Positions 1,034 through 44,500 are shown, counted from the stretch's first letter. The stretch: DNA of 61,351 nucleotides from an archaeon (GCA_043812455.1 JBDRMB010000027.1:1-61351), one strand, 5' to 3'. The notes: generated by a model not told the origin, from the sequence alone. Made by a program: numbers and translations.

Positions 1034-1073
1034 CCCACATACCCACTGGTCAAGTATACAAATTGTATATAAA
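1034..1073 (+). promoter_or_regulatory. 22-bp conserved box plus TATA box, copy 1
   Basis: CCCACATACCCACTGGTCAAGT, 9 bp, then GTATATAAA; the same arrangement occurs at 37362 and 44461. Confidence 0.7.
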
Positions 1074-1091
1074 TAAGTTAATCTCACATAA

Positions 1092-1136
1092 TATCACTCT
1101 TTGTTTTCTTAATTAGCGAAAAACAAAGAGGTGATA
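1092..1136 (+). promoter_or_regulatory. 5'-UTR hairpin sequestering the Shine-Dalgarno of the LAGLIDADG gene
   Basis: TATCACTCTTTGTTTT (1092-1107) pairs with AAAACAAAGA-G-GTGATA (1120-1136), 16 bp with one bulge, covering GAGGTGAT. Confidence 0.6.
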
Positions 1137-1140
1137 AAAT

Positions 1141-1857
1141 ATGAAATTTGATGTGAAAAATGTAAATTTAAGCTATTATGATAAGAAAATTGGACTAATT
1201 CTTCCAGAATGTCCTTCATGCGAATTAGCAGAGTTTATTGGAATTCTTACTGGCGATGGTTATATGAATAAATATGGAAAATACTTTTCTATTGTAGAAA
1301 TTGTTGGAGATCCTAGGTTTGACAAAGCATATTTAGAAAATCATGTTACAAATATGATTAATAATTTATTTAACTTGAAACCAAAAGTAGATTTCAAGAG
1401 AACTCAAAACCTAATGAGCATAAGATTGATGTCTAAAGGATTGAATAATTATCTTGAATTGGTTGGTTTCAAGTCTGGGAAGAAAGGTCAAATCGGAATT
1501 CCTTCTTGGATTTTAGAAAATGATGAATATATGAAATTTTTTATAAAAGGTTTAGTTGACACTGATGGGTGTTTAACTTTGCTTAACAGAAAGCATAAAA
1601 ATTTTAATTTTTATCCAAGAGTACAAATAACCTCAATTAGTAAATCATTAATAGATGATGTTGGGACATGGTTAAGTAATCAGGGATTTTCTGTATGTTT
1701 AATGAAAGACTGTGGAAAAAGAACATACAAAGGGGTAACTAAAATTCACGAAGGTTATCGATTTAATATTAATGGTTATACACAACTTCAGGTTTGGATG
1801 AATCTTATTGGTTTTAGAAATAAGAGACATTTAGATAAATATGAAAAGTTAAAATAA
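1141..1857 (+). CDS. Free-standing double-motif LAGLIDADG endonuclease
   Basis: Motifs LAEFIGILTGDGY and FIKGLVDTDG; no intein splicing termini evident. Confidence 0.85.
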   Translation: MKFDVKNVNLSYYDKKIGLILPECPSCELAEFIGILTGDGYMNKYGKYFSIVEIVGDPRFDKAYLENHVTNMINNLFNLKPKVDFKRTQNLMSIRLMSKGLNNYLELVGFKSGKKGQIGIPSWILENDEYMKFFIKGLVDTDGCLTLLNRKHKNFNFYPRVQITSISKSLIDDVGTWLSNQGFSVCLMKDCGKRTYKGVTKIHEGYRFNINGYTQLQVWMNLIGFRNKRHLDKYEKLK

Positions 1858-1861
1858 AAAA

Positions 1862-1995
1862 TGGGAACGGTGGGATTTGGACCCACAACTTCCAGATCTT
1901 CAGTTTCACCAAAGATATTGAATCCAATACCTTACTGGCGCTCTTTTCTGCAAATGCAGAAAATTTGCAATTGTCCCAGATTAAGCTACGTTCCC
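1862..1995 (-). tRNA. tRNA-Phe(GAA) with two introns (D-loop and 30/31, about 30 nt each)
   Basis: Acceptor GGGAACG/CGTTCCC-A; spliced anticodon arm CCAGA-CTGAAGA-TCTGG; T arm GTGGG-TCCAAAT-CCCAC; both introns form hairpins, and the 30/31 intron has BHB-like geometry. Confidence 0.85.
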
Positions 1996-2045
1996 AATAA
2001 AAGCAAAATAGTTCTAAGCTATTTATAAGTATTTTGGTAAAAGAA

Positions 2046-2993
2046 TTAACTGTTTCTCTTATCTGGAGCAGGACACTTAAGACCTAACTTCTTGTAAATC
2101 TCTTCCTCTGTCTTGCCAGCTACCCATTTCTTGTCCTTCAGAGTAAACAGACCGTACTCATTTAACGTATAACATTTACCTAAAGCAATTTTTCTTAACT
2201 TGATGTTATGGGCCTTGTCACCAGTAAAATATTGCAGAGCAGCACCAAACTCTTTCTCCTTGACAACCCGTAAATCAACTTGCAAATTACTTTTCAAACG
2301 GATAGAACTTTTAGTAGCTCCTTTAGCCAATATATCTTTCTTATCCGGATATGAAACAAAAGCTTCCATAACTTTTTTTGGTTGAGTTGAAACTATCAAC
2401 AAATCTAAATCACCAACAGTTGCTTTCTTCCTACGATAAGAACCAGCAACTTCAATCCGTTTAACAAAAGATTTAGCTTTGAAATATTTAACGATATTAT
2501 CAGCAATAGGAACCATCTCAGCATAAAGATAACGTTTAGGTTTAGATTTAGCAATTTCAATACCTTTGAGAATATTTTGTTCAGTCTTTTCACTGAACCC
2601 TTTCAACTCTTGAATCTTACCAGCTTTAGCAACACGTTCCAAACTTTTCAAATCCTTAACCTTCAACTCTTCAAACAAAACCTTGATCTTCTTCGGACCT
2701 AAAGTAGGTACTGCGTCCAACTCATCCAAATTGATCTTGTACTGTTTCTGTAACTTCTCATAATGTTTGATCTTGCCAGTTTTAATGTACTCAGCAACCT
2801 TTGAAGCAATACTTTCTCCCACGCCAGGAATATCTTCAAGCTCACCACGTTTATACATTTCTTCAATATCTTCATTCAATAATTCAATCTCTCTAGCAGC
2901 GTGATGGTATGCTTGCGGTTTGAACGGAACATTCTTCATTTCCAGAATTGTAGCTATGTTGTGCAAGATCCGGGCTATTTCAAAGTTTTTCAT
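2046..2993 (-). CDS. polX: DNA polymerase X family protein (no PHP domain)
   Basis: N-terminal 8-kDa/HhH region (IPGVGESIA, VPTLGPKK), GSYRR..GDLDLL, VDLRVV, YFTG motifs. Confidence 0.9.
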   Translation of the reverse strand: MKNFEIARILHNIATILEMKNVPFKPQAYHHAAREIELLNEDIEEMYKRGELEDIPGVGESIASKVAEYIKTGKIKHYEKLQKQYKINLDELDAVPTLGPKKIKVLFEELKVKDLKSLERVAKAGKIQELKGFSEKTEQNILKGIEIAKSKPKRYLYAEMVPIADNIVKYFKAKSFVKRIEVAGSYRRKKATVGDLDLLIVSTQPKKVMEAFVSYPDKKDILAKGATKSSIRLKSNLQVDLRVVKEKEFGAALQYFTGDKAHNIKLRKIALGKCYTLNEYGLFTLKDKKWVAGKTEEEIYKKLGLKCPAPDKRNS

Positions 2994-3040
2994 ATGAACG
3001 AAGAAAGAAATTAGAATATAAAAATGTAATTAAAAATTTA

Positions 3041-3164
3041 AGCAGTGCGCGAGCAGAAGTGTAGACAAACACTCTCTATAATTTTTCCTGAAGGAAAAAT
3101 GTTCGCGTTTAATCACTCCTTATGCTAGACGTTCCCGCCCACCTCCCCTTAGCAAGGCACTGCT
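3041..3164 (+). ncRNA. Candidate structured non-coding RNA
   Basis: GC-rich island closed by AGCAGTGC/GCACTGCT with four internal stems; G-U pairing favours the plus strand; no family recognised. Confidence 0.45.
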
Positions 3165-3173
3165 CTAGCAAAT

Positions 3174-5768
3174 TTATTCACTACAACTCTTGTAAACCTG
3201 CCCGTAAGCGTCTACTTTAAGTTCACAGGAGCCGCCTGAAGGTTCTTCCGAAACTGTTTCTGGGGTGGTTGGAGTGTTCTCAACCTCAGGCTCTGAAGAA
3301 CCTCCGGCGCTCTCTATGTTACGTTTCTCTGTATCTTTATCTGTGGAAAGGATCTGCTCACTTCGGGAATTGTCTCTGTACATCGTAACTCCCTTACAAC
3401 CAAGCCGATAAGCCAGATCATACAATCTCTTAGTTTCTTCCACCGTAAAATTCTGTGGGGTGTTAGCTGTTTTAGAAATTGAAGAGTCAGTCCATTTTTG
3501 TACTGCAGCTTGAACTTTAATATGTTCTTCAGGTTTCAGTTCCAAAGCTGTTACAAAATAATTTGGTAAAGTTCCATCATCACGGATGTACTGTTGTGCT
3601 AAAGGAATCTTAACTTTATGGAATCCTAACCTGGACTGTTGATAAAATTCAAATGCATAATAAGGTTCAACACCAGTAGAACTGCCCATCATGGTACCTA
3701 CAGTACCAGTTGGTGCTTGAGTAATCAAAGTAACGTTTCTGATTCCGTTTTCTCGGATCATGTTCTTGACATCTTCAGATAAAGTTTTTACAAAACCACT
3801 TTCAAGGAAATGTTCAGCAGAAAATTTTGGAAATGGTCCTTTTTCTTTAGATAACATTGATGATGATTTGTACATTTCTTCACAAATAAATTTGTAAATC
3901 TTGTCAATGAATTCTAAAGATTCGTTACTCCCATACCTTAACCTAAGTTTGATTAACATTTCTCCGATACCTAAAGTACCGCAACCTACTCTTCGTTCAG
4001 CTTTTTGATTTTCTTCATTTTCTTTGAAATGGTACGGAGTCAAATCAATTACATTATCTAAGAACCTATTAAGTGCCCAAGATGCACGTTTAAGTTCTTC
4101 CCAGTCAACATGATATAATGGACCTAAATTATCTTGACCAACTTGTTTTAGAAATGAGGCCATATATAGGTGACCTAAATTACATACTCCCCAACCAGGA
4201 AGACCTTGCTCACCGCACGGGTTAGTACAGATGATAGTATTAAAGTAATAAGAATTACTTAATTTGTTATACCTTTCAATGAAAACTATTCCAGGTTCAG
4301 CACTAGCATGTGCAGATTTAACAATTTGGTCCCATATGGTTCGTGCTTTAACGGTCTTGTAAACTTTTGTTGGAAGACCGTTCTTTTTCCATTCATCTAA
4401 ATTACCGTCCCAATCTTGTTGATAAATTTCTCTAGTTTCTTCATCTTCATAATCTGGAAATTCTAAGTTCCAGTTTTCGTCACGCATTACAGCGTCCATG
4501 AATTTGTCAGAGATTAAGATGGAAATGTTAGCATTTTCTATCATACCTTTTTGTCGTTTAGCGTTGATGAACTCTTCAACGTCAGGGTGCCAATCGTTAA
4601 GCATCAGCATCAGTGCACCACGTCGTGAACCGCCCTGTTCAATCAAACCTGTTGCATAAGAGAAGATTCCTCCCCATGATACTGCACCGGAAGATTTTCC
4701 GTGCACACCTTTAACATAAGCGTAACGTGGTCTTAATGAAGATAAATTAATTCCAGCTCCACCACCACGACTCATAATTTCTATCATCTGAAATAAAGAT
4801 TCTCTGATGATAGATTTTCTGCTATCTTTTGGACTTGGCAAGACATAACAGTTGAACAGGGTCAAGTTTTTAGTGTAAGCATCTTTACCCATACTGGCAC
4901 CGGTCATGATCCTTCCGGCCGGCTGGATATGTTTCTTCTGTAATTGGTACAAGAATTCTTTACTCCATTGTTCTTGCAGTTCTGGAGTTTGTTCCATAGT
5001 AGCAACAGCAGTAGCAACTCTTACATGAGCATCTTTGATAGATTCTATTGGCCGGTCGCATTTCCAGATAGTAGTTTTGAATTCGTGATTGTTAGATTTG
5101 TCAGCAAATTCGCCAGTTATCACGTGCAAAGTAACTTTGTCACCATTAATGTCTTTGATAATCCCTAATTCTTTTTTGGGAAATCTAGCATCTTCTCTGG
5201 TTAATGCTATTACTAAATCACCAATTTGAGTATTTTCTCGTTGATCTTTGATTGAATACCTGTCTAAGAAGATTGATCTTCCCAGTTCGTCAAAAGAAGC
5301 TGATTCCAATAAGATTCTTCTAGCTTGATTAGAAAGGGGGACATTCATAGATTCTATTAATTGAATTTCTTCAGTTGTTGTTGGAGTTTCTGGAACTTGT
5401 TCTACACTTTCAGGTACTGGTTCTAGTTCAACATTTTCTTCGTAATTTTCATATTCAGATTGATTACTGGCAGGTTCAAAAGCTAAATTATTTTTTTGAA
5501 TGTTATTGTCAAGTTCAGTACTTTCATCAACAACGTTCCTTAAAGAAGATTGTAATACTAATTGTATTAAAGCATCAAAATCTGCTTGAGAAGGTATAGT
5601 ACTAACAAATCGTTGACTTACCAGTTCAATAATATTTTTAGCAATATTTTGCGCTTGTTCGGCATTCAAGTTACTATGTTGTTGAATCTGTTCAGAAATA
5701 AAACCTAAAGTATCCTCGTAATTGAAGTCAGCTAGAGTTCCATCATTTAGCTGGATTTTTTCTATCAT
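3174..5768 (-). CDS. nrdJ: Class II (adenosylcobalamin-dependent) ribonucleotide reductase
   Basis: PAGRI, TLFNCYV, SRGGGAG, TNPCGEQ, QAPTG motifs; C-terminal Cys pair; degenerate ATP-cone-like N-terminus. Confidence 0.92.
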   Translation of the reverse strand: MIEKIQLNDGTLADFNYEDTLGFISEQIQQHSNLNAEQAQNIAKNIIELVSQRFVSTIPSQADFDALIQLVLQSSLRNVVDESTELDNNIQKNNLAFEPASNQSEYENYEENVELEPVPESVEQVPETPTTTEEIQLIESMNVPLSNQARRILLESASFDELGRSIFLDRYSIKDQRENTQIGDLVIALTREDARFPKKELGIIKDINGDKVTLHVITGEFADKSNNHEFKTTIWKCDRPIESIKDAHVRVATAVATMEQTPELQEQWSKEFLYQLQKKHIQPAGRIMTGASMGKDAYTKNLTLFNCYVLPSPKDSRKSIIRESLFQMIEIMSRGGGAGINLSSLRPRYAYVKGVHGKSSGAVSWGGIFSYATGLIEQGGSRRGALMLMLNDWHPDVEEFINAKRQKGMIENANISILISDKFMDAVMRDENWNLEFPDYEDEETREIYQQDWDGNLDEWKKNGLPTKVYKTVKARTIWDQIVKSAHASAEPGIVFIERYNKLSNSYYFNTIICTNPCGEQGLPGWGVCNLGHLYMASFLKQVGQDNLGPLYHVDWEELKRASWALNRFLDNVIDLTPYHFKENEENQKAERRVGCGTLGIGEMLIKLRLRYGSNESLEFIDKIYKFICEEMYKSSSMLSKEKGPFPKFSAEHFLESGFVKTLSEDVKNMIRENGIRNVTLITQAPTGTVGTMMGSSTGVEPYYAFEFYQQSRLGFHKVKIPLAQQYIRDDGTLPNYFVTALELKPEEHIKVQAAVQKWTDSSISKTANTPQNFTVEETKRLYDLAYRLGCKGVTMYRDNSRSEQILSTDKDTEKRNIESAGGSSEPEVENTPTTPETVSEEPSGGSCELKVDAYGQVYKSCSE

Positions 5769-5972
5769 CTACACCACCCCTTTTGATAATTAATTGTGAA
5801 AATTAATGATTTTTTGAAACTGCAGTGGTTTATATACTTTTTAGTTCTGCAAAATATAGAAAATAATAATCGTGAACAGATTTAACTTACAGAATAGCGT
5901 TTTGATTAAAATGTTTTAGCAACAGTTAGTTTATGGAACGATTTAAATTAAAATAAAAATATAAAAAAAGAA

Positions 5973-6098
5973 CTAATATCCGCGGCACTTTTTACAGTAG
6001 TACCTGTTAGCATTTTCAACTACTATTTTAGAACCGCAACCTTTGCAACACCGCTGGATTTTAAATTTTTTAACTTCTTGAAAAACGTGTTGTTTCAT
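5973..6098 (-). CDS. 41-aa Zn-ribbon-like small protein (not in the ORF track)
   Basis: MKQHVFQEVKKFKIQRCCKGCGSKIVVENANRYYCKKCRGY*; CxxC...CxxC; GAGGT SD-like sequence upstream. Confidence 0.6.
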   Translation of the reverse strand: MKQHVFQEVKKFKIQRCCKGCGSKIVVENANRYYCKKCRGY

Positions 6099-6305
6099 TT
6101 ACATCCAACCTCTTTTTAGAACACCTTGCCTCTTAACTCAAAGCGTTAACTTTATATAGAATTACCACTAGTATATATATGTTTCTGTTGTTTAGACGTT
6201 GAATTAGACTATAATTACATATTTTCTGAGAAATTCATTTAACGCACATGGTTCTTTTTTTTAAGTGTTAGGTGTAATTTTTCAAGTCGAAAATTGATCT
6301 GGAGT

Positions 6306-7199
6306 TTAATAATAAGAAATCGATACAATACCTGCTATTATGATTGCTAAAGCAAAATATTGTTGTAACTTTAGCTTTTCTTTGTAGACAATCTTACCAT
6401 ATAAAGTAGCAATCAATGGATTAGCAAAAGCAATAGCAGCGATAATACTAACATTATAATTTTGAATTCCCATGTTAAAGAATAGTGTCCCTGCCCCTCC
6501 AAATAATGCTACCAAGAAAGTGTATAAGATCATTTTTTTATTTTTAATTGCAAATGTGCCTTTCTTGAATTTGTTTGTAAATAAATTGTGAACTCCACTG
6601 TAGATTAAAATTTCAAATTCTATCAGGAATGAGGTTAAGATCGGGCCAAGGACGTTTACTGGTATCTTGAACAGGAAAAATACCAAACCCCAGAGGATGC
6701 AGGTGATCAAAGCATAAGGTACTCCACTTGACATTTGAAACAGATGTGAACTCTTAAATTCTTTGAAGTTAATCGACATTAAGATTATTCCTAAAAGTAT
6801 AATGATGATAGAAATTCCCTGCATTAGAAATAATCTTTCACCGAAGAAGATGATTGAGAGAATCACAGTAAAAAATATCGAAGAATTTGCAATAGGAGAA
6901 ACAATACCAACTTTACCAACTTCTAATGATTTATAGAACGTTAGTAATGGTAAATATCCAACAAAAGCGATTCCAAAAGTTATAAGGATGAAGTTTAGAG
7001 AGAAGTTAGCTTCTTTCAGGAAAGATAATAAAATAATCAGAAGAATAGTGCTAATAAAAAGTCCTCTGTAAAATATTGTTTTTTTGTTACCAATTTCTTG
7101 GTTTGGAACTTTTGCAATTGCATTACTTAATCCATAACCAATCATAGAAATGATTGCAAATATTATTCCAGCTGGTAAAGTCATAGTACTGAGAACCAA
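6306..7199 (-). CDS. EamA/DMT family transporter
   Basis: About ten hydrophobic segments in two repeats; YKSLEVGKVGIVSPI and VYKEKL signatures. Confidence 0.9.
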   Translation of the reverse strand: MVLSTMTLPAGIIFAIISMIGYGLSNAIAKVPNQEIGNKKTIFYRGLFISTILLIILLSFLKEANFSLNFILITFGIAFVGYLPLLTFYKSLEVGKVGIVSPIANSSIFFTVILSIIFFGERLFLMQGISIIIILLGIILMSINFKEFKSSHLFQMSSGVPYALITCILWGLVFFLFKIPVNVLGPILTSFLIEFEILIYSGVHNLFTNKFKKGTFAIKNKKMILYTFLVALFGGAGTLFFNMGIQNYNVSIIAAIAFANPLIATLYGKIVYKEKLKLQQYFALAIIIAGIVSISYY

Positions 7200-7234
7200 T
7201 CAGAGGATTATAAAACTTTCTGAGAGAATAAAAG

Positions 7235-7918
7235 TTAAAAGATGAAAATATAAGAAGCAACACCCAATACTACCATTGCTAACCAAATGTATCTGTTCCA
7301 GTAGAGGATCTTTTTACCATCAAAGTTACCAAATGGAATCATGTTGAACAAACCTAAAAACATATTGATAAATGCACCTATTGAAAATATTTTACTTAAT
7401 GTAGGAAATAAAAATAATAATCCTAAAAATATCCCTGCAAGGGTATAATTAGTTAACGGTCCTGCTAAACTTATGATTCCATTTTCTTTTCGAGTAATAT
7501 GTCCGGCAATCATCACTGCACCAGGGGCAGCGAAAATAAAACCAATTACAACAGCCAGGCCTAAAGCAAGGTATAACATCTGGTCAAATGCACGGAATTC
7601 TGCGACACAGCCATACTTCTGTGCGACAAATTTGTGTGCAAGTTCGTGAAATAAAAATCCAAGACCAGCAGTAAATAGGGAGATTCCAAATATAATTAAA
7701 AACTGAAAAGTAAAAATATTACTTAATGAACTAAAACCTCCTCTAAATAAACTAATATCAAAACCTAAGAAGTTTGGTGCTAACACAATTGCAAATGCCA
7801 ACGATAACACTACCCAGGCTTTCAGGATATCGATAAGTTCAATCTTGGAAGTTTTGATAGGTCCAAGTTTGAAAGATTTGTTAGTACGATATTGTTGATC
7901 AGGGTTTGGTGGATACAT
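7235..7918 (-). CDS. M50 (site-2) intramembrane metalloprotease
   Basis: HELAH, AGPLTN and FNMIPFGNFDG motifs. Confidence 0.9.
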   Translation of the reverse strand: MYPPNPDQQYRTNKSFKLGPIKTSKIELIDILKAWVVLSLAFAIVLAPNFLGFDISLFRGGFSSLSNIFTFQFLIIFGISLFTAGLGFLFHELAHKFVAQKYGCVAEFRAFDQMLYLALGLAVVIGFIFAAPGAVMIAGHITRKENGIISLAGPLTNYTLAGIFLGLLFLFPTLSKIFSIGAFINMFLGLFNMIPFGNFDGKKILYWNRYIWLAMVVLGVASYIFIF

Positions 7919-7995
7919 CTTTTATTTAGAATTGAGCAGTATTTATTAAAGTATTCCTTAACTCAATGAATGATAGAAAATCTCTGATTTTTACT

Positions 7996-8271
7996 TTACT
8001 CTTCTTCCTGCTTACTCTCTTCATCATCGTCATCTTCTTCAACGACGGGAACTTTTTCTTTCTCTTCTCCAACTTCTGCTTCTTCATTAAGCCTTCCTAA
8101 ATCAATTTTTTCTAATAGGAACTTTTTCAATCGTTGTGCTTCTTCTTCAACTTTGACTAACACAGAAAGATCACTGAAATTTTCTTCTGCACATTCTTGA
8201 CAATAATAATCGCTAGTGTCTTTAATCTTGAACTTAGCTTCTTCACTGCAAATAATACATTTTTTTGGCAT
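7996..8271 (-). CDS. Small Zn-finger protein with acidic tail
   Basis: CIIC...CQEC; E/D-rich C-terminus. Confidence 0.7.
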   Translation of the reverse strand: MPKKCIICSEEAKFKIKDTSDYYCQECAEENFSDLSVLVKVEEEAQRLKKFLLEKIDLGRLNEEAEVGEEKEKVPVVEEDDDDEESKQEEE

Positions 8272-8384
8272 CCGGTAACCTCAAATTAAATTTACTTTAA
8301 AAATATTTCTTTTCCTCACTTATGAAAACCTTTTTTTTAATAGAATAAGCACAGGACTTGCATATGAATTGATGCTAACCTTAA

Positions 8385-9638: not shown

Positions 9639-9739
9639 AAGAATAAGGAGTATTTTTGTTTTTATTAATGTTTGGGTAGATTCATGGTGTTAGCTGGGCA
9701 TAAGTTTTTATATTTATCAACGTTTTTTATTTAATTCAA

Positions 9740-9835
9740 GGGCCGGTAGTATAGTGGTAAAATAGATGCTTGGCTATGATCCGACAAAGGTCAACTAAAC
9801 AGCGTCAGTCCCGGGTTCGACTCTCGGTCGGTCCA
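9740..9835 (+). tRNA. tRNA-Ala(GGC) with a 25-nt anticodon-loop intron
   Basis: Acceptor GGGCCGG/TCGGTCC-A with the G3-U70 alanine determinant; anticodon stem GATGC/GCGTC; TTGG/CTAA central helix; T arm CCGGG-TTCGACT-CTCGG. Confidence 0.8.
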
Positions 9836-9845
9836 TAAAAAGAGG

Positions 9846-10262: not shown

Positions 10263-10334
10263 TTAATATTAGCATTCCAATTTATTCTCTGGACAAGATA
10301 AAAGCTTTTAATATATTTTACTTGAAAACATTTT

Positions 10335-11270: not shown

Positions 11271-11273
11271 TTC

Positions 11274-11708: not shown

Positions 11709-11749
11709 AATCTTATCATTAGAATAGATACTATAAATATTTTATTATC

Positions 11750-32748: not shown

Positions 32749-32752
32749 TTCC

Positions 32753-33505: not shown

Positions 33506-33508
33506 TTT

Positions 33509-36066: not shown

Positions 36067-36095
36067 TTTAATTTTTTAATATCTTTCGCAACTGG

Positions 36096-36506
36096 TTGAG
36101 GATAATCTGTCGTGCACAAATTTTAAATAGTGATGCTAATAATCACAAATTTACAATGAGATATTTTCATATTGATAAGAAAGAAGAAATGAGTGGGCAG
36201 GACCTTTTTAACAGAGTAAATGCTTCTTTAAATGGGATGGGTCTGTTGGAACATGTGCGAATTACTGAAAATGATTATTATGTACAAGATACTTGGAAAG
36301 ATCCTGATGGTAGGGCAGTTGTTGCAATTTATAAAAAAAGGGATGTTGATTTGTTACCAGCAACTTTTGATATGGCTCTTAATAACAAATTATTCTCCTC
36401 TTCTGGAAGTGAATTACGTAATGCTGATTGTGTAATCTATACTGTTAGAATGGATGAAAGTCAGTATGGGGAAATAAAAAGAAATGTTGAAATGGGCTTA
36501 GAATAA
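36096..36506 (+). CDS. Hypothetical protein
   Basis: Open frame; start uncertain (possibly MRYFHID). Confidence 0.55.
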   Translation: MRIICRAQILNSDANNHKFTMRYFHIDKKEEMSGQDLFNRVNASLNGMGLLEHVRITENDYYVQDTWKDPDGRAVVAIYKKRDVDLLPATFDMALNNKLFSSSGSELRNADCVIYTVRMDESQYGEIKRNVEMGLE

Positions 36507-36529
36507 TTTTTTGTTGATTACTTTGTTTT

Positions 36530-37291
36530 TTACAAAACTTCTTCAGAATTATCATCAGTAGGAGTATCTTCATTATTTTCTTCTAATACTCTTTCATCTG
36601 TGACATTACCGTCTCCTTCAAAAAAGGCATAACAGTCATTTTGCATAGCGCTAAATCCAATCTCATCACACAATTCCTCATTATCACCAATTTGAGCCAT
36701 TCGTAATAAACATAAATCTGTGTTCCAACTGTTACTCATAAGATCACACATCTCAACATCAACAACTTCTTTAGCAATGTGCATAATACATCGGTCAGCA
36801 TCAACAAAGTCTTTTAATTCTAGACATAGTTCAGCATTGTTTGTAGCCGCTGCAATCTCTTTATAACATTCCTCATTTTGTTCTTCGCGGTCAACTAAAG
36901 CGCAAAATTCAGCTTCGTTATTATTCAAAGCATAATTGTAATAACAGTTTTCTTGCCAATAAGTATCTTCAATAATGTCACAGATTTCAACATCAGCCCG
37001 TAACTGTGCAATTTGATGCTGGCAGTAATATTTGGTGCTATCCTTTTGGATTAAGTCACATACATTCAAATCATCAGCTTCCACTGCAAGTTCTGCTACA
37101 CAGGAATCTCGTAAGGTATCAGATTCAACTTTACTACATTCTAGCTTTTCAGAATAACAGCTGTCTTTAGCAGAACCTTCCATGCTGGCACAATCGGAAG
37201 TATCTACAGTTGCTCCACCAGTAGGGTTACAGCTTGCTAAAACTAAGCTTAAAGCAAGCAAAATTGCTATGATTAACGTTTTGTGTGACAT
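36530..37291 (-). CDS. Cys-rich repeat lipoprotein
   Basis: Signal LVLASC; about seven repeats of C..I......C...+A. Confidence 0.75.
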   Translation of the reverse strand: MSHKTLIIAILLALSLVLASCNPTGGATVDTSDCASMEGSAKDSCYSEKLECSKVESDTLRDSCVAELAVEADDLNVCDLIQKDSTKYYCQHQIAQLRADVEICDIIEDTYWQENCYYNYALNNNEAEFCALVDREEQNEECYKEIAAATNNAELCLELKDFVDADRCIMHIAKEVVDVEMCDLMSNSWNTDLCLLRMAQIGDNEELCDEIGFSAMQNDCYAFFEGDGNVTDERVLEENNEDTPTDDNSEEVL

Positions 37292-37361
37292 GTTGGCTTA
37301 GGTGGTATTTTGCTTTATAAAGATTATGATATTCTAGTAATTGTTTTGTTCAAAGGCAAAA

Positions 37362-37401
37362 ACCACACATCCACTGGTCAAGTGCGGACAAAGTATATAA
37401 A
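37362..37401 (+). promoter_or_regulatory. 22-bp conserved box plus TATA box, copy 2
   Basis: ACCACACATCCACTGGTCAAGT, 9 bp, then GTATATAAA. Confidence 0.7.
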
Positions 37402-37439
37402 CTAGCAATTCTATGAACTATTGTGATAATTTTTCAGAC

Positions 37440-37471
37440 TTTTCAAGTTTAAGATTGTAGAAACTTGAAAA
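37440..37471 (+). promoter_or_regulatory. 5'-UTR hairpin of the second LAGLIDADG gene
   Basis: Perfect 11-bp stem TTTTCAAGTTT/AAACTTGAAAA covering TTG 37465 and ending 8 nt before ATG 37480. Confidence 0.55.
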
Positions 37472-38181
37472 CTAAAAAAATGAATATTAAAAAAATTCAT
37501 AAAATTGATCTTAATGAAAATACTGCCTATCTTGCAGGAGCAATTGTTGGAGATGGTCATATTTCTAATTCTTGTAAATCAAAAACAGATAAATCTAAAG
37601 ATTACAAAATTGCCATAGAAGTAATAGATAAGGAGTTTTTGATGGAAGTTGAAGCTTTAATTAAATCTATCATACAAACTAAAAGTACTATTAAAGGGCG
37701 ATATGACCTTAGGGGATGTAGAAAGAAATTGTATTATTTTCAGTTCAGGAATAAGAGCTTCTACTATTTTTTGACAAAAGATCTAGAAATAAAGGCAGGT
37801 AATAAGTGTTCTTCTGTAGTTATTCCAAAGAAAATATTTTATTCATTAAACTTACAAAAATCCTTCATTGCTGGTCTTTTTGATACTGATGGGGGAATAA
37901 GGGGAAAAACAATAGGATTTACTTCTTCAAGCAAAATATTAATTTATCAAACAAGTATAATTCTAAATAACTTGAAAATAAAACATTCTGTAGAATCTTG
38001 GCTAAACAAGAAATATAACCAGAAGTATTATGGAATAAGAATTAGTAAGATAGATAGCGATATCTTTTTAAATAACGTACCTCTTAGGAATAAAGAAAAA
38101 CTCAAAAGAGTCTTTTATCATGTGGGCGTGCCGGAGTGGTCAAACGGGATAGAAAATTCTATGATCCAAATCAAGAATTAG
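37465..38181 (+). CDS. Free-standing double-motif LAGLIDADG endonuclease overlapping tRNA-Leu
   Basis: AYLAGAIVGDGH and FIAGLFDTDG; the last 20 codons run through the tRNA 5' exon into its intron. Confidence 0.85.
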   Translation: MKTKKMNIKKIHKIDLNENTAYLAGAIVGDGHISNSCKSKTDKSKDYKIAIEVIDKEFLMEVEALIKSIIQTKSTIKGRYDLRGCRKKLYYFQFRNKSFYYFLTKDLEIKAGNKCSSVVIPKKIFYSLNLQKSFIAGLFDTDGGIRGKTIGFTSSSKILIYQTSIILNNLKIKHSVESWLNKKYNQKYYGIRISKIDSDIFLNNVPLRNKEKLKRVFYHVGVPEWSNGIENSMIQIKN

Positions 38182-38272
38182 TCCAAGCTTAGGCCGGTTT
38201 GGTAAGGTATAAACTTACTGGAAGATACCTATTGGTTTAGTACCTACGCAGGTTCGAACCCTGCCGCCCACA
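38122..38272 (+). tRNA. tRNA-Leu(TAG) with two introns (30/31 and 37/38)
   Basis: Acceptor GTGGGCG/CGCCCAC-A; spliced arm ATAGG-CTTAGGA-CCTAT; long variable arm; introns 38153-38186 and 38194-38226. Confidence 0.88.
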
Positions 38273-38309
38273 TTCCTTTTCTTTTGGTGATTGATGTTAA
38301 AGGTAAAAA

Positions 38310-38936
38310 ATGAGCCTAAAAGACCTTTTCACCAAGTATGATAAAGAATTCATGCTAGTTGTCATTTTATTATATTACATCTTTCCTTTCTTTCTGGTCA
38401 GCAGATTAACATTAGATAAAGTACATTATCATCTAAACACTATTGATCATATAATTCCTTTAGTCCCTTTTGCAATTGTAATTTACCTTTCAGTATTTGT
38501 CTTAGTATTTCTACCTTACTTTATCATAAAAGATAAAAGGTACTTTTACAATGTGTCACTAAGTTACTTTTTTGTAATGAGTCTTAGTTATATTATCTAC
38601 TTATTTTTTCCTGTAGAAATAGTTGGACCAGATCCTGGAACTGGCATCTTTGCTTGGGTTGTAAGTATAGTATATTTTATTGACCATACTACAAACGCTT
38701 TTCCAAGTTTGCATGTGGCCATGGCATTATTATCAAGTTTAATTTGTTATCGTCACAATAAAAAATATTGGTGGTTCATATTATGGGCAGTCTTGATTTC
38801 AATATCTATCGTGTTTGTCAAACAACACTATTTTATAGATATAATTGGTGGAGCATTAGTTGGATTAATAGGATATTTAATCTTAATTAGAATCTTAGAA
38901 AAAAAGAAAATTAAAATTAGTAAAAATAGAAACTAA
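38310..38936 (+). CDS. PAP2/AUR1-like membrane phosphoesterase
   Basis: NAFPSLH and QHYFID motifs; six TM helices. Confidence 0.85.
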   Translation: MSLKDLFTKYDKEFMLVVILLYYIFPFFLVSRLTLDKVHYHLNTIDHIIPLVPFAIVIYLSVFVLVFLPYFIIKDKRYFYNVSLSYFFVMSLSYIIYLFFPVEIVGPDPGTGIFAWVVSIVYFIDHTTNAFPSLHVAMALLSSLICYRHNKKYWWFILWAVLISISIVFVKQHYFIDIIGGALVGLIGYLILIRILEKKKIKISKNRN

Positions 38937-40504
38937 ACACCCTTGAACAACTTAGCAACTTTTTCCTTACCAATCTCTAAAATAAAACTAGCTAACCTTG
39001 GTCCTTTCTCCTTGTTAATCAAAACTCGGTAAGCTGTCTTGAAGTAATCACCTGGTGGGAAATCGTTGTTCTTACACAAAATGTACATCTCTTCATGCAA
39101 TTCCTTGTCAGTCCATTCTTTTTCAAGCAATTTGTCAGCTACCTGGTGCAAAATTTCCTTTTCTTTGTCACCTAAAGTCACTTGAACTTTATCTTGGACA
39201 TGAAACCTAAAGTCTTCTGGTGCATATTTCTGGATCCAATTCTTAGCACATTCTGCACGGATTCTAAGACGTTTCTTATCATGCTCATTCTTCAGTTCTT
39301 TTTCAAAGTAACCAACTGTTTTCTCAATATCAAAACTGTTGATTTGTAATACTGTTGTCAAATGCCTAATACTTGGCTGATAAGGAATGGTTTTAGGAAT
39401 TTTACCAATGAAACTTAATTCATAAGCTACAGAATTCTTTTCCTTAATTTTTTCATTGACGTTCTCTAGGCCAAAATAAATTCTTTCCACTTTATCAAAT
39501 TCTTCATAAACAGCTAAAACATCAGTATCAAAACTGATTGCAAACTCTCTATTTGGTCTAGTACCAGCAAATAGGTATCTAACAATCTCAGGTTCGTACA
39601 CTTCCAGTGTATCTTTCAAATCAATAACGTTTCCTAAAGACGAAGACATCTTACCACCAGCGCCTTTTACAATGATAAAATCATAACGTTGATAGACTGG
39701 AGCTTCTTTTTTCCAGACTGTTTCTACTATTTCCTTAGAAGTATCTCTGCTGCCACCAGGAGTAGAATGTTCTTTACCACCTGGTTCAAAATCTACATTT
39801 TCGTATGCCCAGCGCATTGCCCAGTCAACTCGCCATCTCAATTTTGCAATTTTAGTTTTTCTGAAATCAATTTCTTCTGTAGCGCCACATTCGCATTTAT
39901 AACTTAATTTATAATCTCCTAGCCATTTAAGTTCTGTAATCGTATCCTTTTTACAGGTTGGACAGAAAATTGTTACAGGCAGCCAGTTCTCTGCAAGAGG
40001 TTCTTTTCTATATTTGTCAAGAATATCTTTAATCTCTTTTGTATGTTCAAGGGCTTCTTTTATCTGTTCAGCATAATCTCCATTTTTATATTTTATATTT
40101 TGATAAATAAATTCTGGATTAACATCAACTATTGGAAGAACGTCTTCAACTGCCTTTTGATTATGTTTAGCATAACTTTTGTGGCAGCCATAAGTGTCTG
40201 GAACATCTACAATTGATTTTCTCAAACAACTTTTTAGAATGTCTGGTTTTGGCATTCCTTGCGGTACTTTTCTGAATACATCATAATCATCCCAAGAATA
40301 AATAAATCGAACTTTCTTACCGCGTTTGATTAATGCTCTTCGTACCAGATCTACAGTAATCGTTTCCCTAAAATTTCCAATATGAACTACACCGCTAGGA
40401 GTAATACCTGCAGCTACAGTGTAAGATTTTTTGTCTCCCTTTTCACGGATAATTTTATCTGCAATGATATCTGTCCAATGATACATATTTTTTTCTTCTG
40501 CCAT
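38933..40504 (-). CDS. lysS: Class I lysyl-tRNA synthetase
   Basis: GITPSGVVHIGN, WRVDWAMRW, EPGGKEH and KMSSS motifs. Confidence 0.95.
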   Translation of the reverse strand: MAEEKNMYHWTDIIADKIIREKGDKKSYTVAAGITPSGVVHIGNFRETITVDLVRRALIKRGKKVRFIYSWDDYDVFRKVPQGMPKPDILKSCLRKSIVDVPDTYGCHKSYAKHNQKAVEDVLPIVDVNPEFIYQNIKYKNGDYAEQIKEALEHTKEIKDILDKYRKEPLAENWLPVTIFCPTCKKDTITELKWLGDYKLSYKCECGATEEIDFRKTKIAKLRWRVDWAMRWAYENVDFEPGGKEHSTPGGSRDTSKEIVETVWKKEAPVYQRYDFIIVKGAGGKMSSSLGNVIDLKDTLEVYEPEIVRYLFAGTRPNREFAISFDTDVLAVYEEFDKVERIYFGLENVNEKIKEKNSVAYELSFIGKIPKTIPYQPSIRHLTTVLQINSFDIEKTVGYFEKELKNEHDKKRLRIRAECAKNWIQKYAPEDFRFHVQDKVQVTLGDKEKEILHQVADKLLEKEWTDKELHEEMYILCKNNDFPPGDYFKTAYRVLINKEKGPRLASFILEIGKEKVAKLFKGV

Positions 40505-40625
40505 AAGCTTTAATGATAAGTAATTGTTATTTAAACATTTCTTATAGTTTTAGTTAAGTTAGTTTTATATATTATAAAATATTCTTTAGATATTGTAATT
40601 ACTTTAATTTAAGAGGTGTTTAATC

Positions 40626-41504
40626 ATGATTATTACAAGCTGTGGAAATTCTGTAAAAATTGCTAAAAAGATTGCTACGCAACTGAAATGTAAATATAAT
40701 CCTTTGAAAATCAGTTGTTTTCCAGATGGAGATATGTACATGAAGTATAGTGACAAAGTGAAAGGTCAAGAAGTAGTAATTGTCCATTCTTTTCAACCTA
40801 ATTCAGATTTATCAATGTTCAGATTAATCTGGGCAGCAGCAGGAGCAAAACAACAAGGAGCTAAAAAAGTGATTCTAGTTGCACCTTACTTAGCTTACAT
40901 GAGGCAAGATAAAATGTTCAACCCTGGCGAAGTGGTAAGTGCCAGAGTGATGGCCAAGCTTGTTAACACTTATTTTGATAAACTTATTACAATAGATCCA
41001 CACTTGCATAGGATCAGGAAGATGAAGGAAGTGTTCAAGAATGGCACAAATTTGACTGCTAACAGTGTGATTGGTGATTATGTTAAAAAGAAAATCAAGA
41101 ACGCTGCAATCATCGGTCCGGACTGGGAATCATATCAATGGGCAGAAGCCATTGCAAAGATTGTAGGTTGTGAAGTTTCTGTGTTTCGTAAGACAAGGTT
41201 TAGTGGTAGGCATGTTGAATCAGAGATGATAAAAAAGATTGATATGAAAGGAAAGAACGTTGTGATAGTTGATGACATTATTTCTACTGGTCATACTATC
41301 ATCGAAGCTTCTAAGAAAGCTAAACATCTTGGAGCTAAAAGTGTTACTGCGATTGGTGTACACGGTCTATTTGTAGAAGGTGCTGTTGGTAAACTGAAAA
41401 AAGCTGGGATTAAGAATGTTCTTTCGACAAATTGTATTGAACACCCGACTAATGCGATTGATGTTACCTCGTTGTTGGTTAAGGAGTTGAGGAAGAGAAG
41501 ATAG
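40626..41504 (+). CDS. prs: Ribose-phosphate pyrophosphokinase
   Basis: FPDGD, PYLAYMRQDK, IDPH and VDDIISTGHT motifs. Confidence 0.95.
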   Translation: MIITSCGNSVKIAKKIATQLKCKYNPLKISCFPDGDMYMKYSDKVKGQEVVIVHSFQPNSDLSMFRLIWAAAGAKQQGAKKVILVAPYLAYMRQDKMFNPGEVVSARVMAKLVNTYFDKLITIDPHLHRIRKMKEVFKNGTNLTANSVIGDYVKKKIKNAAIIGPDWESYQWAEAIAKIVGCEVSVFRKTRFSGRHVESEMIKKIDMKGKNVVIVDDIISTGHTIIEASKKAKHLGAKSVTAIGVHGLFVEGAVGKLKKAGIKNVLSTNCIEHPTNAIDVTSLLVKELRKRR

Positions 41505-41507
41505 TAC

Positions 41508-41816
41508 TTATTCTTCTTCTGTTTCCTTATTAACCCAGTCTTCAAAGGCTTTGTTTGCTTCTGCGTTAATTTTTATGATGCACGGAGTGTCATAAGAGTG
41601 CAAGTTCTTTATTTCTTCTTTGACTTTATCCCAGTTTTCATCTCTGGTTTTCATAAGTGCAGTAGTTTCTTTAACATTGTTCCTTTTGTTTTTCCAATTG
41701 AAGCAAGCATTTACATCTGAGAAATTTGCGCACGCGATAAGTTTTTCTTTTAGCAAGTGGTTTGCAATCTTTTGTGCTTCTTCTCTGTTTGCAAAAGTTG
41801 CATAAATGATTATCAT
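41508..41816 (-). CDS. cutA: CutA divalent cation tolerance protein
   Basis: LIACAN, LMKT and LHSYDTPCI motifs. Confidence 0.92.
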   Translation of the reverse strand: MIIIYATFANREEAQKIANHLLKEKLIACANFSDVNACFNWKNKRNNVKETTALMKTRDENWDKVKEEIKNLHSYDTPCIIKINAEANKAFEDWVNKETEEE

Positions 41817-41828
41817 TTTAGTTTTTGA

Positions 41829-42296
41829 TTATTTACACGAACTGTCATAATCATAACGATCATCTAGGTCAGCTTGGTAATCCCTGGGTGTTGTGCTTAT
41901 AACCGGTATACTACCCCCTCCTCCTGAACTAAAACCAACATCTCTTGTAGGTCCGCTATGTGTTTCATGTTTTTTTGATATGTTAGTTTCTCCTATCAAG
42001 CATCTTTTTCCATCTCTTGATTTCGTAGCAAAATAATAATTATCTCCTTCCTTAACAAGGATTAGTTTATCAGCGTGGTCAAATAATACTGAAATGTCTG
42101 ACAGAATTCTTGAAGTTCTAATCATGTAATCTGGCCCAAAAGTAATTTGAAGAATACAATCTTCAACAAATACATGACCTCTAAACTGTTCCTTTGTGGA
42201 TTTAAAATATTCTCTTAAAGCATCATTAAGTTTTTCTTTTTGGATCACCTTAGGATTTGTCAACTTTAAGTCTATTGTTTCTCTATCATATGCCAT
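41829..42296 (-). CDS. Hypothetical protein
   Basis: 155-aa ORF. Confidence 0.6.
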   Translation of the reverse strand: MAYDRETIDLKLTNPKVIQKEKLNDALREYFKSTKEQFRGHVFVEDCILQITFGPDYMIRTSRILSDISVLFDHADKLILVKEGDNYYFATKSRDGKRCLIGETNISKKHETHSGPTRDVGFSSGGGGSIPVISTTPRDYQADLDDRYDYDSSCK

Positions 42297-42335
42297 AAAT
42301 TAATTAACTATCTCTTGTATTTAAATATTTATGAA

Positions 42336-43187
42336 TTATAGGCTCTGTAGAAAAAGTCTTAAGACATTAGCTCCAATGTTGTAGGCTATAAGCCTACAGA
42401 ACATTTCTGCATTAATCATGGGGCTTTTTCGATACTTGACAGTAGCTCCGAAGAGTCTTTTCAAGGCAGAGAAAAGACATTCAACAATATTTCTCTGCCA
42501 GTATAAGCACCAGTCAAAGCAATCTCGCATTAATTTTCTATGTCTTCCTCGCTTACAACCCTTTCGAACAGGCGCTACGCTGAATGTGCCATGTTTGTTT
42601 AGCCATTGGTGAAGATCTTCGCAGTCAAACCCTTTATCCATTAGTAAGATCTCTGGTTTGACACAACTTTGCTTATGCAAAGTTGGGATTCTTTTAGCTT
42701 CACCATGTGGCTTTGCGAAGAAAGTTCCTGCCAAGAACTTTCTTCTTTTCACATCAACGAGAGTTATTGCTTGAACATGTCTTTTTACTGGATCTTTCCC
42801 GTCAATACGCTTAAGATAGTATTGGCTTGCTCCAGTCCTAGAAAATCCTGTTCCATCTGCTGCAGCAAGATAGACTTTGTCAAAGTCTATCGTCGCAGTA
42901 AGAAGGGATTGCCAAATTGCTCTAGGAAATCTCCTAGCAGCTTTTTGTAACGTTGTAAAGTGTAATTTTACATCGTAAAATTCTGCTAAGAACTTAGCAG
43001 CTCTCCGATATGAGAGCTGATATACTTGCTTAATAACTAAACCTAAACAGAGAAGCCAAGATTGGAACTTTTTAGGCCCATAATGATGGAGCCATCTTGG
43101 ATATCCAGCAGTTTTAAACAAGCAATAAATTTTTCTATCAAGTCTTTTTTCTTTCTTCATATGGTGAATACCTCTAATATTCACCAC
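42336..43187 (-). CDS. IS5-family DDE transposase
   Basis: AADGTG, LMDKGFD and RNIVECLFSALKR motifs. Confidence 0.9.
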   Translation of the reverse strand: MVNIRGIHHMKKEKRLDRKIYCLFKTAGYPRWLHHYGPKKFQSWLLCLGLVIKQVYQLSYRRAAKFLAEFYDVKLHFTTLQKAARRFPRAIWQSLLTATIDFDKVYLAAADGTGFSRTGASQYYLKRIDGKDPVKRHVQAITLVDVKRRKFLAGTFFAKPHGEAKRIPTLHKQSCVKPEILLMDKGFDCEDLHQWLNKHGTFSVAPVRKGCKRGRHRKLMRDCFDWCLYWQRNIVECLFSALKRLFGATVKYRKSPMINAEMFCRLIAYNIGANVLRLFLQSL

Positions 43188-43245
43188 CCCCTGTAGAAGA
43201 GATTCTACAGGGTTATTTTAATCTTACGAGATTTTCTACAGAGCC
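42341..43245 (-). mobile_element. IS5-family insertion sequence, 905 bp
   Basis: Perfect 14-bp TIR GGCTCTGTAGAAAA (42341-42354) / TTTTCTACAGAGCC (43232-43245); no target-site duplication visible. Confidence 0.85.
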
Positions 43246-43290
43246 ACAATTTCCGAAAACTTTTTGAACTTATATGTTATTACTTCAACC

Positions 43291-43348
43291 ATAAATAGCA
43301 CCTCTTTTTTTGTTTTACCACTAAAAAAGAAATCATGGTGCTATTTAT
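43291..43348. repeat. Nested inverted repeat
   Basis: ATAAATAGCACC/GGTGCTATTTAT (12 bp) enclosing TCTTTTTT/AAAAAAGA. Confidence 0.6.
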
Positions 43349-43624
43349 ACTTATTTAAAAAGCAATTCTACGGTGCCAATCTCTCAGAAAAATTTAAATA
43401 TCTTGATTGCATATATTATTATATGATTGGTAGAATTAAATTGAGATTAGTACTTTCTAAGATAGTTAGCTTTAATTCTCCTAACCCATCACCGGCACAG
43501 TAAGTGCCTTCATCAGATTCTTAGTTCAATACAGATAAATATTTGAACTTTCTAAAAAAATACATGGAGGAAATAAAAATGAAATTAGAGCAAATAGTAC
43601 AAAAATTTGAGAGGAGGAGCGAAA

Positions 43625-44416
43625 ATGAAATCGGGAAAACCGGTGGTCGTATTCCTTGTTAAAGATAAAACCATCTCTATAATAGGAGCAGGTTCTTTAG
43701 GAACTGCAGTTATTGAAGCACTTAATTCACAAGGACATGAAAAAATAATTGCAACAAGAAGAAGTGACCAAGGTCTAGAAGAATTACAACAAAATTATGA
43801 TGTTAAAGCAAGTAAAAATAATTTTTATGCTGTAGAAAATTCTGACATTGTAATTTTAGGAGTAAAACCTTACTTAATTGAAGAGATTTGTAAGGAAATT
43901 AAACCTTATGCTCAAGGAAAATTAGTGATTTCTCTTGCAGCTGCAAAAAGTATCTCTGAAATTGAAGATGTCTTAGGTGAATCAAGAATTTGTCGAGTGA
44001 TGACTGGAATTTTTGTAAAAGATGAAGTTGCGGCATATTCTTTTGGTTCTAAAAGAAACGAAGAAGATGCTGAAATTGTAAGGTATATATTTGGAAATGA
44101 TGCAATTGAAGTTGAAGAAAACGCTTTAGCTGATAGAACTTGGATTGCTTGTGATACTGGTTTGCTAGCCAAAGAAGTTGAAAATAAGATTAAATCTTTA
44201 GAATATATGGATGAAAACAGTGCAAGGATTATGTATGCCGCAACACTTGAAGCGGTCTCTAAAGGTTTAAGGGATGGTATGACTGGAAACCAGATTTTTG
44301 ATAAGGTTGCTGGATCGGGTAGTTTTACAGAAAAGTTGCATAACTCCTTGAAAGAGAAAGGCATCTACAAACATATGGCAAAACTTGTTAAAGAAACAAT
44401 TAAGGTTTGTAAGTAA
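43625..44416 (+). CDS. Pyrroline-5-carboxylate reductase-like oxidoreductase
   Basis: IIGAGSLG Rossmann motif, DIVILGVKP, ISLAA and ICRVM; diverged C-terminus. Confidence 0.75.
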   Translation: MKSGKPVVVFLVKDKTISIIGAGSLGTAVIEALNSQGHEKIIATRRSDQGLEELQQNYDVKASKNNFYAVENSDIVILGVKPYLIEEICKEIKPYAQGKLVISLAAAKSISEIEDVLGESRICRVMTGIFVKDEVAAYSFGSKRNEEDAEIVRYIFGNDAIEVEENALADRTWIACDTGLLAKEVENKIKSLEYMDENSARIMYAATLEAVSKGLRDGMTGNQIFDKVAGSGSFTEKLHNSLKEKGIYKHMAKLVKETIKVCK

Positions 44417-44460
44417 TTTTTTTATTTTTTTCTTCATTATTCTCAAACATACATATTCTA

Positions 44461-44500
44461 CCCACACACCCACTGGACAGGTTCGGAAAAGGTATTTAAA
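44461..44500 (+). promoter_or_regulatory. 22-bp conserved box plus TATA box, copy 3
   Basis: CCCACACACCCACTGGACAGGT, 9 bp, then GTATTTAAA. Confidence 0.7.

Follow-up and report, generated by a model that had tools for sequence, protein, structure and literature searches.

The stretch of DNA analysed here (the window, 61,351 nt) is contig C27 of a 1.14-Mb genome in 44 contigs. It is archaeal, AT-rich DNA with 33% G+C and an intron-bearing tRNA-His, from one order of tiny uncultured, Woesearchaeota-type (DPANN) archaea. Three of its promoters carry a common element, here called the box, which had been proposed as a 22-bp sequence at a fixed distance upstream of the TATA box and in front of nuclease-related genes. 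The three boxes were verified at 1034-1055, 37362-37383 and 44461-44482, all on the plus strand, as were the GTATWTAAA exactly 9 nt after each of them and the TAGCAAT that copies 2 and 3 have in common one base past the TATA box. Pfam searches confirmed that the downstream genes are two LAGLIDADG endonuclease genes and an operon of an HD/OB (YhaM-like) gene, xseA and xseB (Table 1). A search of the 61-kb window with the 21-mer consensus, allowing up to three mismatches, returned these three sites only, and so did a search for core, spacer and TATA box combined; neither search gave a match in 100 dinucleotide-preserving shuffles. All genomes studied, this one and its relatives, are metagenome assemblies, and the open reading frame (ORF) calls are crude and were made for this analysis.

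The count of three copies holds for the window but not for the genome, which contains 16: 15 full boxes and one whose upstream half is displaced by a 38-nt insertion. The TATA box lies at the identical offset in 16/16 copies, and every copy faces a gene, with the ORF starting 60-190 nt downstream. When one mismatch was allowed in the 9-nt core, only the nreA site was gained, against 14 matches for the reversed control; the other one-mismatch core variants of this genome were rejected as real sites. The targets are eight LAGLIDADG genes, one HNH-repeat gene, an intein-bearing hef, an operon in which radA and a TRAM-domain gene come after the gene for a 117-aa beta4-alpha protein, the HD-nuclease/xseA/xseB operon, nreA, two Bro-N genes and an overlapping pair of micro-ORFs (42 and 51 aa). 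Fifteen of these 16 targets act on DNA. Two of the 10 free-standing LAGLIDADG genes of the genome have no box.

Table 1. Box promoters of the window and the genes behind them (positions in the 61,351-nt window).
Feature	Position	Strand	Evidence
Box copy 1, CCACATACCCACTGGTCAAGT: degenerate upstream repeat CCACATAC and invariant core CCACTGGTCAAGT	1035..1055	+	pattern search, logo
Copy 1 spacer ATACAAATT (includes A-rich BRE position) and TATA box GTATATAAA	1056..1073	+	
LAGLIDADG endonuclease gene, free-standing, two-motif, 238 aa; copy 1 target	1141..1857	+	Pfam LAGLIDADG_3, E 4.6e-07
Box copy 2, CCACACATCCACTGGTCAAGT	37363..37383	+	
Copy 2 spacer GCGGACAAA (box-specific CGG, then A-rich BRE) and TATA box GTATATAAA	37384..37401	+	
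LAGLIDADG endonuclease gene, free-standing, 233 aa from ATG; copy 2 target	37480..38181	+	LAGLIDADG_3, E 3.2e-15; Hom_end
Box copy 3, CCACACACCCACTGGACAGGT	44462..44482	+	
Copy 3 spacer TCGGAAAAG and TATA box GTATTTAAA	44483..44500	+	
HD-domain and OB-fold protein (YhaM-like nuclease), first gene of copy 3 operon	44553..45563	+	Pfam HD, tRNA_anti-codon
xseA, exonuclease VII large subunit	45598..46785	+	Pfam Exonuc_VII_L, E 2.3e-88
xseB, exonuclease VII small subunit; start overlaps xseA end	46782..46994	+	Pfam Exonuc_VII_S, E 6.9e-18

A logo of 134 distinct sites showed that the element is a compact module of about 45 bp, in which conservation starts abruptly at box position 1 and fades past the TATA region. 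With so sharp an edge to its conservation, the element does not belong to any larger repeat. Apart from the bases that the search pattern itself fixed, positions 1-8 (cCMMnnAC), 23-25 (CGG) and 28 (A) are conserved, and the TAGCAAT of copies 2 and 3 coincides with a weakly conserved A-G-T at positions 42-44. In the ordinary promoters of this genome (n=288), the TATA box and an A-rich B recognition element (BRE) at -6 to -3 are all that shows; what is conserved at positions 1-25 is thus peculiar to box promoters, and the site directly adjoins the BRE. The proposed 22-bp box therefore stood as a part of the element, but its limits did not, as conservation runs over positions 1-25, including the CGG, to 8 nt before the TATA box. 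In sequence, the core promoter behind the site looks like the ordinary ones: box promoters have an A-rich BRE and a consensus-like TATA box, as the 288 ordinary promoters do. At 59/121 sites the distance from the box start to the start codon is 58-66 nt, and this spacing matches the TATA-to-ATG distance of the many leaderless genes of this genome, indicating that the TATA box is functional in its position.

Nor is the box a single non-repetitive word. Its upstream half is a second, more degenerate copy of the core, with a period of 7-9 nt, and the site is a degenerate tandem direct repeat in which the core ends 14 nt and the full box 11 nt upstream of the TATA box. The tandem form in this genome is CCACACAC-CCACTGGTCA-AGT, and the ancestral form is the tandem repeat CACTGGA-CACTGGACA. 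Some copies have identical spacers, e.g. ATACAAATT. At the box sites of this genome and a few relatives the spacers fall into two classes, ATACARATT and SCGGAYARR; the former was seen at hef, the radA operon, the same-genus xseA and some LAGLIDADG and Bro-N genes, in a few genera only.

The element extends over the whole order. The pattern CCACTGGWCARGT, 11 nt, TATA was found in 53/114 genomes of the family, with 0 matches for the reversed control, and the relaxed pattern CACTGGWCA, 14 nt, TATA in 124/151 genomes of the order (reversed control, 8 matches in 7 genomes). Outside the order the box is at background level, as the relaxed pattern matched 7/107 genomes of other orders of the class and its reversed control matched 6 genomes. 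Regulon size ranges from 5 to 40 members per genome. In a same-genus genome the full 21-mer precedes the small-protein/radA operon, xseAB (L016), hef, LAGLIDADG genes and an integrase gene, and in other genera it precedes hef, PolB, LAGLIDADG genes, integrases and the micro-ORF pair. We retrieved 120 sites from relatives and sorted the first downstream ORFs by Pfam. They were overwhelmingly DNA-acting: LAGLIDADG (26), Bro-N (22), tyrosine recombinase or integrase (9), C5 methylase (6, with an NgoFVII-type restriction gene behind), DEAD/Hef/Lhr helicases (5), Cas4/Dna2-like PD-(D/E)XK nucleases (5), ORF6N (4), ERCC4 (3), MutS-like (MutS_V, 3) and Nre (2). RhuM, XseA, PolB and RarA were also among these targets, PolB and RarA once each. 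One Bro-N target, in the relative G072, is a full-length equivalog of Escherichia coli DinD (353.8 bits against a cut-off of 242); the DinD and YdjM families are SOS genes in E. coli.

A further line of evidence came from the radA operon. Its loci were retrieved by protein homology and not by motif, and its promoter spacing is thus an independent observation. The 117-aa radA-linked protein was found in all 30 family genomes that were negative by the strict pattern, and 26 of these 30 have a variant box at the radA operon, with the core CACTGGWCA and a right flank AAC[CT] instead of AAGT. In box-positive genomes of other families the radA operon carries the box in 16/16 cases, usually as the clean tandem CACTGGA-CACTGGACA. 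The TATA box of radA-operon promoters lies 12-14 nt (mode 14) past the core. The box is likewise kept before orthologous hef, xseA and nreA across genera, families and the order. Several relatives (L164, L166, L169, L165, L168, L181, L177, L171, L173 and L180) have a second core pair at their radA promoters, 75-90 bp upstream of the promoter-proximal box and with no TATA box of its own; cooperative binding may make use of such pairs as auxiliary sites. Upstream of the small-protein/radA operon (L159-L219), a gene for a YdjM-like membrane protein, a label assigned by eye from the protein sequence, was present at 16 loci, and an RPA-like OB-fold/zinc-ribbon gene at 15 loci. With the small-protein/radA genes, these make up a conserved genome-maintenance island.

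Where the canonical core is missing from a genome, both repeat units are altered together in the radA-operon promoter, giving tandems such as CACTCGACA-CACTCGACA, CACAGGA-CACAGGACA and CACTTGA-CACTTGCCA. The cores seen across the order are CACTGGACA, CACTGGTCA, CACTGGCCA, CACAGGACA, CACTTGCCA and CACTCGCCA, while some genomes, e.g. G035, G142, G146, G166, G176, G237 and G238, truly lack a box. The variants are used throughout a genome: in one family, two genomes have the CACTGGCCA core at 10 and 11 promoters, and CACAGGACA stands at 2-3 sites each in G163, G158, G245 and G149, CACTTGCCA at 2 sites in G210 and CACTCGCCA at 3 sites in G184. Because the core is altered at many promoters at once within lineages, a dedicated DNA-binding protein that co-evolves with its sites is indicated. 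Regulon-wide use of one variant is the pattern expected of a co-evolving factor and its operators, and it excludes both chance and a purely mobile cassette.

Several proteins were considered as the reader of the box. An alternative TFB was rejected, as the TFIIB model found one TFB only (a single 339-aa ORF). The small radA-linked protein was rejected as well: it is missing from four box-rich genomes (G025, G249, G159 and G201), and it is not unusually divergent in variant-core lineages. Its predicted topology is beta4-alpha, with core pLDDT (predicted local distance difference test) above 80; it had no sequence match in Pfam, NCBIfam or the PDB, and a fold search returned nothing significant (best E 0.058), with Pur-alpha and single-stranded DNA-binding proteins among the weak matches. 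The label PC4-like is thus one of predicted topology, and we can only guess from the model that the protein might bind single-stranded DNA. Bro-N proteins are absent from 13/29 box-positive genomes, including the same-genus genome. Absence from several box-positive genomes makes both the small radA-linked protein and the Bro-N proteins unlikely readers. An autoregulated factor was also rejected, as none recurs among the 120 first ORFs or upstream of the radA operon, where the YdjM-like and RPA-like genes lie. The LexA-type S24 model (PF00717), which matched 9/14 control genomes, matched 0/21 genomes, own and relatives; ImmA/IrrE-type M78 (PF06114) was not found in this genome, and of the two matches among the 21 genomes (E <= 0.001) one exceeded the family cut-off. 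Ribbon-helix-helix repressors bind tandem heptads or octads, and by analogy a small protein of this kind, binding tandem heptads or octads, would be a reasonable candidate class for the reader.

Orc1/Cdc6 was rejected on other grounds. The genome, which is 93.6% complete, has one Cdc6_C match and hence a single Orc1/Cdc6. The repeats beside its gene that resemble origin recognition boxes (ORBs) read TCCAnnnGAAAC (TCCA-NNN-GAAAC) followed by a G-run, unlike the box, and that contig contains neither CCACTGG nor CCAGTGG and no box. Directly upstream of orc1/cdc6, at C11:13517-13640, there are three ORB-like repeats (TCTCCAACAGAAACAGGGGGGT and two mini-ORBs), and this region is probably the replication origin.

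Some targets and their surroundings showed further features. The split copy (C29:37546-37625, minus strand) precedes a 380-aa LAGLIDADG gene adjoining cysS and consists of CCACATACCCACT, the 38-nt insert, and then CACTGGTCAAGT with the TATA box; CACT stands at both junctions, and it looks as though a small insertion had entered the box and duplicated its target site. In one LAGLIDADG subgroup (C39:86929, C40:3015(-), C29:37583(-), L022 and L015), the TATA box and a GGAGGTGAT Shine-Dalgarno sequence are separated by a conserved leader (…ACGCAAAACTCTTAATAAAATTCTTTTG…) of about 120 nt, which three genera have in common and which may be a regulatory RNA element. The hef intein (C16:~4000-7350, minus strand; …VFDEC/VAKGTKISL…VHN/CHHATGD…) has a LAGLIDADG-type endonuclease domain. 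The box at C29:5122 leads into the micro-ORF pair (L030:1579-1859 = C29:5200-5480), whose 42-aa member ends in FDYQLSGGWIR; beyond it lies a Sua5/YrdC-like gene, set off by a terminator-like hairpin. The pair, which has no family match, and its neighbour are kept in several genera (L077, L085, L092 and L152). Behind the two LAGLIDADG ORFs of the window (1857-2000 and 38181-38300) no tRNA was found by ARAGORN, or by Rfam at permissive thresholds (1750-2100 and 38100-38400), although tRNAs with odd introns could have escaped these searches. A giant ORF of >3,717 aa occupies 50195-61351 on the minus strand and continues past the window end.

From these patterns we consider it probable that the box is the site of a dedicated sequence-specific DNA-binding factor that co-controls a recombination and repair regulon, and that selfish genes have acquired it repeatedly. 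The element and its phasing, the gene set, the order-wide conservation and the concerted change of the core within lineages are what we observed. The regulon reading holds because the phasing is uniform, the targets act on DNA and the element is kept at orthologous repair genes. These findings come from a survey of genome-wide copies, spacing, downstream functions and relatives, which had been named as the way to refute the idea, and they support a regulator site defining a nuclease or DNA-repair regulon, as the original prediction had it. Its second suggestion, a promoter module of endonuclease cassettes, held only as a secondary effect: selfish genes do carry the box, but core host genes carry it too, and not all free-standing LAGLIDADG genes do.

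In the mechanism that we propose, the factor would bind the tandem 7-9 bp repeats abutting the BRE, at a fixed 14 nt from core to TATA box, and would contact TFB/TBP stereospecifically at the adjacent BRE/TATA. One factor would co-control the radA operon, hef, nreA and the HD-nuclease/xseA/xseB operon in this genome, and in relatives also Lhr-type helicases, MutS-like proteins, Cas4/Dna2-like nucleases, RarA and PolB. Selfish and accessory genes (LAGLIDADG, tyrosine recombinases, restriction-modification, Bro-N, ORF6N, RhuM and DinD-like genes) would repeatedly have gained the same type of promoter and therefore be co-expressed with the host recombination machinery. The signal may be DNA damage or single-stranded DNA, in an SOS-like manner. 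Activation appears slightly favoured over repression, in what is close to an even call, because the site is always upstream of BRE/TATA and in one exact phase across the order. The fullest version, in which the regulon is an order-wide, LexA-independent, SOS-like damage regulon run by a small protein on tandem 7-9-bp repeats phased with BRE/TATA and captured by selfish genes, is put forward tentatively, as somewhat short of an even chance.

Several points weigh against these proposals. No transcription factor gene recurs among the targets (120 first ORFs, of which the 30 unclassified ones were read by eye). The case for induction by damage is one of gene content and of analogy with SOS (recA, dinD, ydjM and mobile-element genes). 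The BRE/TATA of box promoters looks as good as that of ordinary promoters, and a strong promoter held down by a repressor would explain this no less well than a weak one that needs an activator. The many mobile and defence targets mean that the signal could be foreign DNA or a cell-cycle stage rather than damage. Metagenome-assembled genomes and crude ORF calls count on the same side.

The alternative that survives best keeps the same regulon but makes the reader a repressor with the logic of LexA or DdrO, which would sit beside the BRE, block recruitment of TFB/TBP and be removed or inactivated after damage. Left to itself, a consensus-like core promoter would be on, the targets include nucleases and homing endonucleases that may be toxic and need tight shut-off, and the second core pairs upstream of several radA promoters resemble auxiliary operators. 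However, the site always stays clear of both the TATA box and the start site, and it keeps one exact TATA phase throughout the order, which steric repressors do not need and stereospecific activators do. In archaea, sites upstream of BRE/TATA generally activate, as with SurR, TrmBL1 and Tgr, and this rule too argues against repression, as does the absence or near absence of S24 and M78 proteins. We regard a repressor as rather unlikely, if worth keeping in mind.

It is less likely still that the box is a real regulon operator answering to a signal other than damage, either a stage of the cell cycle or of replication, or foreign DNA that is taken up or comes into conflict with the cell, in a competence- or defence-like response. 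Restriction-modification, Cas4-like nuclease, integrase, Bro-N, ORF6N and RhuM targets are typical of mobile elements and defence islands, PolB and RarA are targets once each, and a recombinase gene paired with a small-protein gene recalls bacterial competence regulons. Against such a signal, the 136 sites yielded no gene for Orc1/Cdc6, MCM, PCNA, primase, pili or DNA uptake, the order-wide members radA, hef, xseA and nreA are repair and recombination genes, and both the DinD equivalog and the YdjM-like genes at the radA operon recall SOS.

We consider it very improbable that the reader is a domesticated LAGLIDADG-HTH (helix-turn-helix, WhiA-like) protein, or that the LAGLIDADG enzymes encoded behind the box cleave it or home to it. 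The box does share its length, asymmetry and contiguity with LAGLIDADG target sites, LAGLIDADG genes outnumber every other kind of target, and some of them carry HTH domains, two matching the WhiA LAGLIDADG model. Nevertheless, these genes are sporadic, multi-copy and divergent, two of the 10 in this genome lack a box, and intact boxes precede host genes with no endonuclease gene nearby. The acidic residues of both motifs, read by eye, are kept, so the enzymes look active and selfish. Tandem units of 7-9 bp that change together point to a small, repeatedly binding domain and not to one saddle-shaped enzyme.

A box read as an ORB-like site by Orc1/Cdc6 is more improbable again. The core CCA-C-TGG matches what we take to be the inner dyad of archaeal ORBs. 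Apart from this match, the idea draws on Orc1-2 of the Sulfolobales, the only archaeal damage regulator known (PMC6061795), which reads a damage element there. It is opposed by the single Orc1/Cdc6, the differing repeats that adjoin its gene and the lack of the core dyad on that contig. Finally, a portable strong promoter that travels as a 45-bp module with mobile genes, with no host regulon, is scarcely credible: most copies do precede selfish genes and some spacers are identical, but the box is kept before orthologous chromosomal radA operons, hef, xseA and nreA in different families, its core changes in concert within each lineage, and none of the 16 boxes of this genome has a ribosomal-protein, rRNA or tRNA gene behind it.

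The proposed regulon resembles the SOS system of LexA in that one short operator recurs at recombinase, nuclease, helicase, DinD-homologue and mobile-element genes (integrases, antirepressor-like genes). It differs in that S24/LexA-type proteins are missing from all 21 genomes and that the promoter is of the archaeal TBP/TFB type; moreover, the LexA operator is palindromic and overlaps the core promoter, whereas the box is a tandem direct repeat upstream of it, in fixed phase and with no overlap. The regulon thus parallels SOS in gene content, without its defining LexA protein or its palindromic, promoter-overlapping operator. The radiation/desiccation response motif (RDRM) of Deinococcus is also a palindrome. 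It belongs to a response that employs the repressor DdrO and the protease IrrE (PMC6300522) and shares two traits with the box regulon, as both sets of repair genes are independent of LexA and marked by a conserved promoter motif. Unlike there, the M78 protease is essentially absent here (2/21 genomes, not this one), and the Deinococcus promoter is bacterial.

In the Sulfolobales, the damage element ANTTTC, 23-55 bp upstream of the ATG, is read by the Orc1/Cdc6 paralogue Orc1-2 (PMC6061795, PMC5817253). This network, the only archaeal damage network described so far, has upsA, upsE, tfb3 and cedA1 as reporter-tested targets (PMC6061795), and repair-gene expression in Sulfolobus is not raised by UV (PMC2246294). 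The likeness lies in a promoter motif shared by archaeal genes, which in that case respond to damage. However, the sequences are unrelated, with no ANTTTC in box positions 1-28, the genome here has a single Orc1/Cdc6 with differing ORBs, and the repair and recombination genes themselves are targets.

The sites of the archaeal activators Ptr2, TFB-RF1, EarA and GvpE serve one or a few metabolism, motility or gas-vesicle operons in single lineages, often with a weak BRE/TATA. Like the box, they stand directly upstream of BRE/TATA at a fixed distance, a layout in which activators recruit TBP/TFB (PMC5512572). The BRE/TATA of the box promoters is consensus-like in sequence, which by itself is no measure of promoter strength, and the regulon differs by its 5-40 members per genome and its order-wide conservation. 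The label of activator would fit the position and strict phasing of the site. As for the repeat structure, the omega protein of pSM19035 and MetJ with its metboxes, both bacterial repressors, have operators of head-to-tail 7-8 bp repeats, each presumably bound by a small dimer. The repeats of the box are likewise head-to-tail, with 7-9 bp here versus 7-8 bp there. A literature search found no description of the motif or of a DPANN/Woesearchaeota promoter regulon.

How archaea coordinate repair without LexA is a long-standing question, to which Orc1-2 of the Sulfolobales provides the one described network. The element supplies a precise, testable cis-element for an order of uncultured, genome-reduced symbiotic archaea and defines a gene set for a whole order in which the regulation of transcription is essentially unstudied. 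Its natural core specificity variants can be used to find the regulator by co-variation, and the small protein upstream of radA and the two micro-ORFs are flagged by their promoters as probable repair factors. The distribution of the box further suggests that selfish genes, homing endonuclease genes among them, couple their expression to the host recombination response. If so, the cutting and mobility of selfish genes would be timed to RadA-dependent recombination, which would favour homing and the repair of the resulting breaks. In archaea this would be the parallel of prophages, integrons and integrative and conjugative elements under SOS control.

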